Shown here: in pieces, positions 10,519 through 17,001 of the stretch
Position numbering within the stretch: the stretch's first letter is position 1
Layout of the letters: each line of letters opens with the position of its first letter
Assembly: GCA_028286725.1 (NCBI GenBank)
Contig: JAQBQZ010000009.1
Coordinates: 1,408-65,407, forward strand
From: Candidatus Tayloriibacteriota bacterium
Lineage (GTDB): Bacteria; Patescibacteriota; Minisyncoccia; Phycocordibacterales; CAIRYW01
Direction: 5' to 3'
Length of the DNA: 64,000 bases
Program-made: the position numbers and the translations under genes
The notes under the pieces: generated by a model
What the model was told of the DNA's origin: nothing
The model's input: only the letters and a program-made list of their open reading frames with translations
Database searches by the model: none

Positions 10519-13500
10519 TTATTTTTGACTCGCTTTCAACATTGCATTTATGTATGACCTAGTGACGAGGCCGAAGTATCCAGCCGGAGGATTTATCCTG
10601 TGAGATTTTTGGAATTTTGCAAGCGCGGCTTTTGTCGCAGCACCAAATTTATTTGTTTCCTTTCCTTTTGATCCTGCTCCAGTTTTTGCGATAGTATATC
10701 CAGTTGCATTGAGGAATCTCTGAAGAGCCAGTACTTCTGTATTCGTATCCCCGAACTGTAATACTTTTGTGAAGGTAAAGCGAGATGCTTTGAGATTAAG
10801 AAGTGTTTTTGCAGGAGTTGTAGTAGTTGCCGCTGCTGTTGTTGCCACAGCTACACTTTGTGAATTATTCGCTTGCATAGTAAGGAAGTTAAATACTCCT
10901 CCACCTCCGCCGCCAGTTGAAATAATTGGTGTGTATGCAGTTCCGAAGATTGCAAAGTCTGAGAAGTTTGAAGTCTCGCAAGTAACCGTTCGCGCACCTG
11001 TATTTACAGAACAACTGGAAAGCGGATACCACGCAGATCCATCATATCTGTAGATTGAGAGTGTTGAAGGATTGATATTTATAATATCGCTTGGAGAATA
11101 TGAAAGCGTCACAGTGATTGGATGATCGAATGTTGAAATAACATCAGTATCGTTCACAAGCGCCTTGAGGTTGTAAACTGTTCCAACAAAATTCTGACCG
11201 CTCGGAGTTCCTGCACTTCCCACAAAACTTAATGTGTTTAATTTCTTTATTTGGAATGTTGCAGACGTTGTTGCGGATGTGAAATTATTTGGAACACTAA
11301 TATTCATGCTATCAACACTGAAGCTACCGCCTGATCCAACATTAATAGAATTAGAATCACTTGCGACCACAGCCGCGTTGCCCGTACATCCAGTCGTTGT
11401 GAAGGTACTGTCATTCGACTCCCCAGTGTGCGACAACTCATCAGTTGAAGCTACTTTATAATGGTAGATACTACAAGCGACTAATCCTGAAATATTTATA
11501 CTGTGACTTGTCACACGAGTTACTACATCTGTTTCTGCTGTTGTTCGAGAATAATTATAAGTTGGTCCGAAAGAAACTTGGGATGACGCATCGACGTTTG
11601 TTGTCCAACTGATTGTTGCAGCATTGCTTGCTGGAGTTGCCGATAGTCCACTTATTTGTGGTACAGAAACACCGTTACCATTTCCAATGAGTGTGACACA
11701 ACTTCCATCATCTACATTTGCAGACGGATCGTATTCTTCATAACCAGCGTCTGTACAGCCAAGTACATCATATGTACAAGAACTATCATCAACGTTTGCA
11801 GATGAATTGTAGTTTCTTGCAGAAGGGTCTGTGCAACCAGGAACCTTTGGTGTCACGCAACTTCCATCATCAGTATTAGCGGCCCCACTGTACTCCAGAT
11901 ACGCTTCATTCATACACCCAAGAATCACAAGAGTTGAACAACTTCCATCATCAACAGTCGCCGCTGAATTATATTCAGTGTAACCAGAATCTGTACAACC
12001 TAGAATATCTGGGGGGATATAATTGAACGTTTGCTGTGTCGTCTGTGGTGTTCCAGATTCAAAATCTGGCGAAGAAGATCTAAGATAGATAGTTACTGCA
12101 CCGTTTGAATCTGGCTGTGGTATATCACTACCATTAACCGCACAATTTGCAGAATGCCAAGTGTTATTATCGTAACTATACTCACAAGTATCTGGAGAGA
12201 AATTACCCCAATTTACTGTTGCCCCCGTCCAATTAACTATATTTTGATTGTGAGTCGGAGCAGTAATATCCATATAAACACAGAATCCATCATCTATATT
12301 TGCACTAGAGTTATAATTTATCGCCACAGGATCAGTACATCCATACACATCATAAGTACAAGAGCCGTCGTCTGTTGTTGCTGATGGGTTGTAATTATTG
12401 GCAAAACTATCAGTACAACCAGAAACTACGAACTCACAAGAAGCATCGTCAGTATTTGCAGATGAATCATAGTTGTTTGCAGAAGAATCAGTACAACCAA
12501 ATACTTTTAATGTCAAACAAGTTGCATTATCTATTGTTGCTGCAGCATTATATTCAACATATGAACTATCAGTACAACCAGAAATATCATAAGTACAAGA
12601 AGCATCATTCGTATTAGCCATATTATTGTAATTGTTTGCAGTTGAATCTGTGCAACCTAAAATATACCCAAGATAATCCACATTACCGGACACTGTCCCT
12701 CCTATAGGATTTGGTGTGGGATAGTAGACATTAACATTTCCATTAATATCACCATGATTTTGAGCAGAATTATTAAACTCTACAACCGATGCGGTCACTG
12801 ATCCTAAATTTTGACTGTCGTCATTGAATATTACAGAGTTTGTCGCAATAATACTTACTCTAATGACCGCCCCATTTGAGAATGTAGCTTGATTCACAGT
12901 TGGTGTTGCCCCGCTATTAGAATTTACGGCCGCAGATATGTAGACTGTGCTTGAATTGTTTGGCAAGACCGTCGCAGGAATAACAAAACTTGCATCTCCC
13001 CACCAGTTACCTAGATTATTCCAATCGTTATCCACCGCTCCATTAAAATACAACCCAACAACATCGTAAGTACAGGAACCATCATCTGTATTTGCGGAAG
13101 AGTTATAGTTATTTGCGGTACCGTCTATACAACCAAAAGCCACTGCGACACAAGAACCGTCATCTCTATTGGCAAGTGCATCGTAGTTGAATGCGGTCGA
13201 ATCTGTACATCCCATATTATACAGACAGCTTCCATCATCTATGGTTGCAGCAGGATCGTAGCTAGTAGAAACCGGATCAGTACATCCTAGAACATCGTTT
13301 GAACATGACCCATCGTCAACAGTTGCACTTGAATTATAATTTAAGTAAGCAGAATCAGTACACCCGAGCACATCATAAGTACATGATCCATCATCTACAG
13401 TAGCAGTAGAATCGTAATTACTTGCAGAGCTATCGGTACAGCCAGAAATATCATATGTAAAATTTACACTCGCGCTTGTTTTGTTAAAAGCACCTGCGAA

Positions 13501-16500: not shown

Positions 16501-17001
16501 ATCTCCGGAAGCACCGTCGCCACTTGTTGCATTAGGTGCTGATGAACCAGTACCACCAGTAGCCACGATATTTCCATTAACTGTAGTATTCGAAATAGAG
16601 ACACTGCCAGCAGATCCCGCTCGAGTCGCTATGCCATCTGCACCACTCGCAATAATATCTCCGTTCAACGTAAGATTCGTTATTTGAACAGCGAGACCAT
16701 CGTCTCCATCACCCCTTAACACCCCTGAAGCATTTATATTTCCAGTTATTGTATGCCCCCCGCCATTTATAGTTATTCCAGAAGCAGTAATAATAAGACA
16801 ATCACCTCCGCCTCCAAAATCGCCAGTTATTTCATATGTTTCATTTGGCGTAGCAAGAGACTGACAGCCTCCAACAGTCGTATCTGCAAAAGTAGATTTC
16901 GGAAAAAGAAATGCCCCACCTAGAGAGAGAAAAGTGACAAGAAATATAAGCAAGGGCGAAGTAAAACTATATATTTTTTTGATCGTCCGTGACTTATACA
17001 T
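10519..17001 (-). CDS. giant surface protein carrying at least 45 tandem 28-aa Cys-pair repeats and a C-terminal PG_binding_1-like anchor
   Basis: 2160 aa with a signal/TM N-terminus ([20 protein letters not shown]) and a Gly-rich region with DPENVVCG. Long arrays of G-C-T-D-x-x-A-x-N-Y-N-x-x-A-x-x-D-D-G-S-C-x-Y units are interrupted by three roughly 90-aa CEYSYDN modules. An FN3-like module and a C-terminal [10 protein letters not shown]...[13 protein letters not shown]...GYFGL PG-binding-like domain follow. Confidence 0.85.
   Translation of the reverse strand: [2160 protein letters not shown]

Follow-up and report, generated by a model that had tools for sequence, protein, structure and literature searches.

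A giant predicted surface protein of Taylorbacteria built from a widespread but uncurated two-cysteine repeat

The gene described here lies on the minus strand, at positions 10519 to 17001, of a 64,000-nucleotide (nt) stretch of contig JAQBQZ010000009.1 (the window, numbered from its first letter), from a metagenome-assembled genome (MAG) of Candidatus Taylorbacteria (Patescibacteria/candidate phyla radiation, CPR). As stated in an earlier note made from the letters of the DNA (the sequence-only reading), it is a single uninterrupted open reading frame (ORF), which encodes 2160 amino acids (aa); the product is listed in GenBank as a 'hypothetical protein' (MDB5204566.1). The protein is probably a tandem-module surface fiber made from a widespread but uncurated mini-module, and by its motif, its period and its profile similarity it belongs to an unnamed family of two-cysteine repeats. 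The main value of the analysis lies in the definition of this family, in its connection with perforin-2, and in the view that it gives of the evolution of surface proteins in the CPR.

The repeat unit and its family

The unit follows the motif G-C-[TMI]-[DN]-x-x-A-x-N-Y-[ND]-x-x-A-[NT]-x-D-D-G-S-C. The signature GCx18C occurs 32 times in the protein; in 2000 shuffled versions of the sequence it averaged 0.43 occurrences and never exceeded 3. The tandem two-cysteine motif proposed earlier is thus real, but several of its measurements had to be revised. Instead of at least 45 units we counted 35, 32 of them canonical and three with four cysteines. Successive units begin 24-28 residues from one another, most often 26, and not 28, and the two cysteines of a unit are separated by 19 positions (18 residues between them) and not by 17. 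All canonical units agree without exception at the G, C, Y, A and C positions. Taken by themselves the units amount to 886 residues, or 41% of the protein, so that the array makes up most of the protein, as had been claimed, only when the modules inserted into it are included (residues 473-1770, 60%). The four-cysteine variants, at residues 525-548, 553-572 and 967-990 (window positions of about 15358-15429, 15286-15345 and 14032-14103), have the pattern GC.D..ACNY...A....GCDYSC. Since this pattern also occurs in unrelated family members such as P0002, these variants represent a subtype and not local decay.

No credible match to the unit was found in Pfam-A and NCBIfam, either with the whole protein or with a three-unit fragment at E-values up to 10. 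The repeat is therefore without a named family, as the sequence-only reading had it, but 'unrecognised' should not be taken to mean rare, as the unit is widespread and abundant among microbes of aquatic habitats. An exhaustive HMMER search, with a profile of 18 rows and two units built from the protein's own units, found 20,050 cluster representatives of 1.84 billion at E<=1e-3, of which 10,862 were at E<=1e-10 and 3,206 at E<=1e-30; the Taylorbacteria protein ranks third by score, in a ranking that is biased by the origin of the profile. A word-indexed search with 11 units gave at least 4319 proteins at E<=1e-3, including eukaryote-labelled matches (Phaeocystis). In their source databases the retrieved members are all named 'hypothetical protein' or after another domain. 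From 500 units in 120 homologues we derived the general consensus GCTDPxAxNY(N/D)PxA(N/T)xDDGSCxY, in which a period of 26 prevails; the regular expression behind it fixed or restricted 13 of 21 positions, so that independent evidence is confined to the period and to the positions left free. Compared with the marine consensus, GCTDPxAxNY(N/D)PxA, the variable positions of the Taylorbacteria units are Ser- and Asn-rich. A literature search with motif strings and with terms for cysteine-rich or giant CPR surface proteins, which was incomplete, returned no description of the repeat. Pfam and NCBIfam are without a model for a module that at least 20,000 protein clusters contain, among them those of abundant surface proteins of marine Flavobacteriales, and a profile made from the Taylorbacteria units would provide an annotation for thousands of proteins now called 'hypothetical'.

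When a degenerate DNA pattern for the unit was run against one genome per GTDB species, at least 120 stretches were found. The matches listed came mostly from Flavobacteriales and other Bacteroidota, and also from Neomarinimicrobiota, Marine Group II/III archaea, Paceibacterota/Patescibacteria, and a few MAGs of Comamonadaceae and Luminiphilus. Most members of the family are cargo of the type IX secretion system (T9SS) in Flavobacteriales; others are archaeal, from Patescibacteria, or from phages. At least 556 stretches with the unit were confirmed on IMG/VR contigs. At least two of these contigs (L002 and L009) encode T9SS cargo with CHU_C and, from this gene content, are probably bacterial DNA, and eight 'viral' carrier proteins had no match in PHROGs. 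The presence of the unit in viruses therefore depends on the predicted viral structures of BFVD, where 13 entries were matched at E<=1e-3; several belong to marine phage NIOZ-UU157, among these a crAss-type muzzle protein.

The domains that accompany the unit are diverse. Among 47 family members, Por_Secre_tail was found in 10, CHU_C in two and PG_binding_1 in two; other partners are Lcl_C, FG-GAP, lectin, trypsin, reprolysin, CAP and LRR domains, as well as carbohydrate-associated domains, e.g. Fib_succ_major. Elsewhere among the lineages with the unit, short runs of one to about five copies separate a head domain from an anchor. For example, a protein of Marine Group III archaea has a propeller, a PKD-like region, one unit, an acidic linker, and a C-terminal hydrophobic tail resembling a transmembrane anchor; a Paceibacterota protein has about five units, poly-Gly, and a hydrophobic segment. 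Two proteins, P0221 and P0222, carry unit arrays with a C-terminal PG_binding_1 domain, and the combination of an array with a peptidoglycan (PG) anchor recurs outside this genome.

AlphaFold predictions from a single sequence, containing repeats and one of the inserted modules, were unusable (mean pLDDT 41.5). When four-unit windows, aligned in register in 48 rows, were supplied, the four units reached pLDDT values of 94-97; they are predicted as mostly coil, with short beta-bridges that connect the end of a unit with the beginning of its successor. These values, together with the invariant G, C, Y, A and C positions and the shared consensus, suggest that the unit is a folded module. The disulfide-stapled module of the sequence-only reading is in keeping with this prediction and with the even number of cysteines in the protein (92, paired locally); the staple itself is presumptive.

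Architecture of the protein and a proposed peptidoglycan-tethered fiber

We favor, with modest confidence, the interpretation of the 2160-aa protein as a secreted, strongly acidic, peptidoglycan-tethered fiber with the units as a disulfide-stapled stalk. Secretion and anchoring are indicated by its one hydrophobic segment, by a PG_binding_1 domain that scores above cut-off, by conservation of the tail in a paralog and at a related locus (L209, described below), and by the local pairing of its cysteines. Acidic residues (D+E) number 210 and basic residues (K+R) 47, giving a net charge near -160, and Ser, Gly, Asn and Thr make up 47% of all residues. A charge of this size may be relevant to cation binding or to repulsion from the wall.

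The N-terminus (residues 1-39; 16885-17001, on the minus strand like every feature of this gene) is basic, followed by a hydrophobic stretch at about residues 10-34 and then by ...STFA/DT, the slash marking the predicted cleavage site. This stretch is the sole hydrophobic segment found by a hydropathy scan, and residues 1-39 have the features of a probable Sec signal peptide. The head region (residues 40-315; 16057-16884) starts with the pattern C..L..PN.TY.I..D.GGGGDC.II...GI.I.GGGH.I.GN and continues in Gly/Asn/Asp-rich turns. It had no significant match in a Pfam scan (the best was Pectate_lyase_5, E=0.22) and is probably a beta-solenoid; in the giant metagenome proteins of two loci (L203 and L205) the head element is repeated several times and heads solenoid-like 'GG.GG.ITI.NS' turns. 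Residues 316-365 (15907-16056) consist of the DPENVVC(G) cysteine loop and, directly behind it, 13 perfect and uninterrupted Gly-X-Y triplets (residues 327-365; 15907-16023). The Pfam Collagen model gives 21.3-24.1 bits on the protein, against a cut-off of 27.2 bits. From its triplets, the run could be a short collagen-like trimerization segment. A bacterial Ig-like domain, Big_7 (PF17957, 41 bits compared with a cut-off of 24.1), occupies residues 374-448 (15658-15882).

The units are distributed in five blocks of 15, 6, 5, 5 and 4. Block 1 (residues 473-852; 14446-15585) includes the two four-cysteine variants that start at residues 525 and 553, and block 2 (941-1093; 13723-14181) the one that starts at 967; these are followed by block 3 (1187-1310; 13072-13443), block 4 (1449-1574; 12280-12657) and block 5 (1668-1770; 11692-12000). 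The blocks are parted by the three modules of about 90 aa, CEYSYDN...TLYIR, that had already been recognized in the sequence-only reading: module A (residues 853-940; 14182-14445), which is beta-rich with one cysteine pair (889/903), module B (1094-1186; 13444-13722) and module C (1575-1667; 12001-12279). AlphaFold predicted four beta-strands in the CEYSYDN module at pLDDT 37-75. A fourth interruption of the array had been overlooked: a 138-aa NWW module without a Pfam match separates blocks 3 and 4 (residues 1311-1448; 12658-13071).

Behind the array, an FN3-like domain and a PG_binding_1 anchor are found as previously described. The FN3-like domain (residues 1786-1869; 11395-11646) stays below cut-off, with 24.8-28.6 bits for Pur_ac_phosph_N (cut-off 30 bits) and E=0.05 for fn3; its counterpart in the paralog clears the Pur_ac_phosph_N cut-off with 32.4 bits. 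An unassigned beta-rich region and a Gly/Thr/Ala-rich linker (residues 1870-2086; 10744-11394) lead to PG_binding_1 (PF01471; residues 2087-2142; 10576-10743), which scores 30.8-33.9 bits compared with a cut-off of 23 and is likely to be the wall anchor. The Pfam scan of the protein gave no match to the sorting domains Por_Secre_tail and CHU_C; having PG_binding_1 at its C-terminus and no sorting domain, it was ruled out as T9SS cargo. Sortase anchoring was ruled out as well, since the C-terminus is without an LPXTG motif and the sole hydrophobic segment is N-terminal.

In the mechanism that we propose, the protein would be exported by the Sec pathway and its C-terminal PG_binding_1 domain would hold the fiber non-covalently on peptidoglycan. 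The 35 units, with one disulfide each (C2-C21), would form an extended and fairly stiff stalk, serving as spacers rather than for binding, and the three CEYSYDN beta-modules and the one NWW module would be spliced into it. The Gly-rich, solenoid-like head, Big_7 and the interspersed beta-modules would be displayed away from the wall. If each unit contributes roughly 1.5-2.5 nm, an unverified figure of ours that is borrowed from EGF-type modules, the 35 units would span about 50-90 nm. A spacer role for the units is suggested by their many unrelated partner domains and anchors, by the order of head, unit and anchor in other proteins, and by the use of the unit as a connector in perforin-2. The description of the protein as 'cell-wall-tethered' in the sequence-only reading gains support from the signal-like segment at one end and the PG_binding_1 tail at the other. 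A role as a host-cell adhesin is conjectural; it would be plausible for an episymbiotic lineage and would fit the variability of the locus. Large, variable, wall-anchored fibers of CPR/Patescibacteria are candidates for contact with the host or the environment.

Several observations weigh against a wall-tethered fiber with an inert stalk. No adhesive domain is matched significantly by the head, and the hydrophobic segment at the N-terminus may stay uncleaved and serve as an anchor. The case for a spacer is made from the architecture and from a single characterized example, MPEG1. In most of the longer structural alignments to BFVD entries the root-mean-square deviation (rmsd) is 16-28 Å, which suggests that the geometry between units is not fixed or is not reliably predicted in the models. 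Finally, the conserved Asp, Asn and Tyr of the unit could equally be positions that bind ligands or Ca2+.

The last point is taken furthest by supposing that the units themselves bind, as a multivalent lectin-like or cation-binding surface (for glycan, Ca2+ or mineral) that would be sticky along its length. Nearly all conserved positions other than cysteine are indeed Asp, Asn, Tyr or Ser/Thr, and the protein is extremely acidic, but the requirements of so small a fold are the simplest explanation for the conservation of about 15 of 26 positions. Some family members carry lectin domains or, like those with Fib_succ_major, domains associated with carbohydrates, but within a set of partners so diverse as to be typical of spacers. 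The weak match of a three-unit fragment to CBM_56 (E=0.011, 16.4 bits compared with a cut-off of 27) is far under threshold, and the descriptions of the unit in perforin-2 are confined to that of a structural linker or hinge. Binding along the stalk therefore seems unlikely to us.

We consider less likely still an arrangement in which the uncleaved N-terminus stays in the membrane and the C-terminus on peptidoglycan, the protein being an envelope tether or scaffold, possibly trimerized through Gly-X-Y, and no outward adhesin. The one long hydrophobic segment, of about 25 residues, would suit such a tether, but an Ala-X-Ala-like site (TFA/D) lies behind its core. The Gly-X-Y run is kept in register in both paralogs, but the Pfam Collagen score is under cut-off. 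The gene adjoins an FtsQ/DivIB-like gene, but a conserved scaffold would be expected to persist in genus-level relatives, where the gene is missing or another stands in its place, and Ig-like, FN3-like and solenoid modules are characteristic of proteins exposed at the surface.

The possibility raised in the earlier note that the repeat count is an assembly artefact is very improbable, whether repeats were expanded or chimeric pieces joined when the MAG was assembled from short reads, and so is a non-functional gene: although the source is a MAG and the exact protein is recorded from one contig, the canonical units have a mean DNA identity of 65% (at most 89%, over 63 nt), no exact DNA repeat in the coding sequence is longer than 26 nt, the arrays reported by Tandem Repeats Finder (period 78 or 150 nt) match at 69-77%, and repeats so diverged are little prone to collapse or expansion in assembly; moreover, the 6.5-kb frame is unbroken with its units and modules ordered and in register, and arrays of comparable or larger size are present in many independent assemblies.

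A variable locus and modules shared with other proteins

The neighbors of the gene in the window are housekeeping genes (FtsQ/DivIB-like, SerRS, DprA, TopA, ParB, Dus, DnaX and ClpB), and eight tRNA genes are dispersed through the window; the region is chromosomal DNA and no mobile element. Next to the 2160-aa gene lies that of a paralog, a 1353-aa ORF (6399-10460, minus strand) with a middle that is rich in Big_13 according to Pfam and alignment. Its start is probably Met11 (nt 10430), which gives 1343 aa; from this residue on, the N-terminus is collinear with that of the 2160-aa protein (MSIYKSRTL... and MYKSRTI..., respectively). The resemblance that the sequence-only reading had seen in the Gly-rich N-terminal region with DPENVVCG extends further, and the two proteins share the head, cysteine loop, Gly-X-Y run, Big_7 and PG-binding tail at 49-51% identity. 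The Gly-X-Y run of the paralog has 11 triplets (residues 331-363) in the same place. Directly after Big_7, and before the Big_13 repeats, the paralog has a single unit, GCTDLYAINYDPSATDDDGSCLY (8976-9044, minus strand), which lies where the array begins in the 2160-aa protein. From this sequence relationship, the array plausibly grew from a single unit still present in the paralog: the gene would have arisen as a duplicate of a Big_13-type paralog, and one unit would have been expanded by tandem duplication.

Genus-level relatives were available for comparison (protein identity of TopA 96%, ParB 95%, DprA 92% and SerRS 81-93%; nucleotide identity 72-87%). In the region compared (window 6399-17904), the slot downstream of the FtsQ-like gene holds two genes here, a different single gene in L209, and no large surface-protein gene in L207. 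The FtsQ-like protein is about 60% identical between these genomes, compared with 81-96% for the flanking housekeeping proteins. The 1410-aa protein encoded in L209 is without units and combines a BNR/sortilin-like head and a PG-binding tail with an NWW module and Big_13 repeats. Its NWW module is 47% identical to residues 1315-1389 of the 2160-aa protein, and its tail is 53% identical to that of the 2160-aa protein (51-53% when the paralog is included). The slot is a variable surface-protein island, in which, as the sequences of close relatives indicate, modules are shuffled on a constant PG-binding anchor. The 2160-aa gene is thus accessory and mosaic, since the slot of its relatives is empty or holds a different, unit-less PG-anchored protein and since its modules are shared with giant unit-less metagenome proteins.

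The last of these were found by a DNA-pattern scan, which located the CEYSYDN module in five metagenome loci on JGI contigs (L202-L206). They encode giant proteins of 1715-3317 aa, some of them truncated, that are without GCTD units and share the head element and the DWNN..NWW module; NWW-like segments were seen in L202, L203 and L205. The head element is repeated in these proteins with the pattern 'C..I..PGTY.L...GGDC.I....V.IDG.GH.I.GN', together with Gly-rich solenoid turns. One locus, L204, is archaeal- or DPANN-like in look and has many Ig-like 'P.ISI.SP...C.YS.D' modules. Three CEYSYDN modules are also found, along with units and a PG_binding_1 tail, in P0221, where the first module stands directly behind the signal peptide; the gene lies among housekeeping neighbors on a contig of 771,708 bp (L001). 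The CEYSYDN module has no relative in Pfam, and a profile search of the PDB gave only noise. Its interpretation as a diverged Big_7 domain was rejected (hhalign probability 1.6%), and a word-indexed homology search with an alignment of the three modules returned no matches. A homology search with the N-terminal 433 residues gave one marginal match, which was uninformative as the search was swamped by Gly-rich words.

Perforin-2 and other known systems

When the unit profile was compared with PDB sequences, the only credible matches were to perforin-2/MPEG1 (E=4e-4 to 7e-3), at residues 332-353 of the human protein (6U2J/6U23) and at residues 4-29 (6SB1) and 333-358 (6SB3/8A1D) of the mouse protein. 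The segment has been called a 'truncated EGF-like domain' at the hinge between MACPF and P2 (PMC6989145), a linker elsewhere labelled truncated or postulated EGF-like (PMC6989145, PMC7593815), and the hinge is a proposed rotation point during pore formation. Like the unit, it has all of the conserved positions except Ala7; it is extracellular or lumenal and stands between two functional domains. The match is short, 22-26 residues, and the likeness is one of sequence. In MPEG1 a single copy forms a hinge in a pore-forming protein, whereas the Taylorbacteria protein has 35 tandem copies in a wall-anchored fiber. A MACPF protein of the giant virus Terrestrivirus could be superimposed on one unit over 30 columns at 0.7 Å rmsd and 43% identity, at an E-value that is not significant (0.37). 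Judged by the sequence match to MPEG1, a single unit has been seen experimentally, under another name, as the inter-domain connector of perforin-2. No paper linking the MPEG1 linker to a microbial repeat was found in a literature search that was incomplete. As a member of a large microbial family, the MPEG1 hinge would acquire an evolutionary context and many natural variants.

Arrays of EGF and calcium-binding EGF domains, as in fibrillin and Notch, form rods in tandem from domains of about 40 residues (35-45) with six cysteines and three disulfides. EGF is the label that the MPEG1 authors gave to the unit, and EGF domains resemble it in being small, disulfide-stabilized extracellular modules. 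The unit, in contrast, has two cysteines (four in the three variants) in 26 residues. The EGF-family Pfam models had no match in the whole protein at E<=1 or in a three-unit fragment at E<=10, and a fold match for the unit was not obtained. An assignment of the unit to EGF was ruled out on the grounds of its cysteine number, its length and the missing model match.

From these comparisons we put forward, more tentatively than the fiber interpretation, that the GCTD...NY...DDGSC unit defines an ancient and undescribed mini-domain family, occurring in Bacteria, Archaea, phages, a giant virus and, once, in metazoan perforin-2. Its members would form disulfide-stapled rods when in tandem; the perforin-2 hinge would be a single copy and no EGF relic, and the Taylorbacteria protein would be among the most repeat-rich examples and, if the proposal is true, a good model for study of the unit.

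A further resemblance is to PsaN, photosystem I subunit N (PF05479). Positions 73-102 of its profile align to the junction of two units in some family members (...NFxxxAxxxxGSCxFxxxxxGCxDxxA), with 35.6 bits for P0079 (residues 5-32) and 25.1 bits for P0058 (residues 285-311), compared with a cut-off of 21. The 2160-aa protein itself has no PsaN match, nor do its units at E<=10. The resemblance covers only about 28 residues, and homology is putative; by its sequence, PsaN might contain a relic of about 1.5 units.

The T9SS cargo proteins of Bacteroidota are similar to the 2160-aa protein in their unit and its dominant 26-residue period, and in being large, secreted, modular proteins; they differ in that they are sorted by Por_Secre_tail or CHU_C, whereas the Taylorbacteria protein has PG_binding_1. 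A comparison can also be made with region II of the ice-binding adhesin of Marinomonas primoryensis, a type I secreted RTX adhesin whose extenders are Ca2+-dependent Ig-like domains of 104 residues (PMC4083281). These extenders have no sequence or fold in common with the unit. By analogy only, they are like the proposed stalk in that small modules, strung together in a long array, would hold binding domains out from the cell surface.

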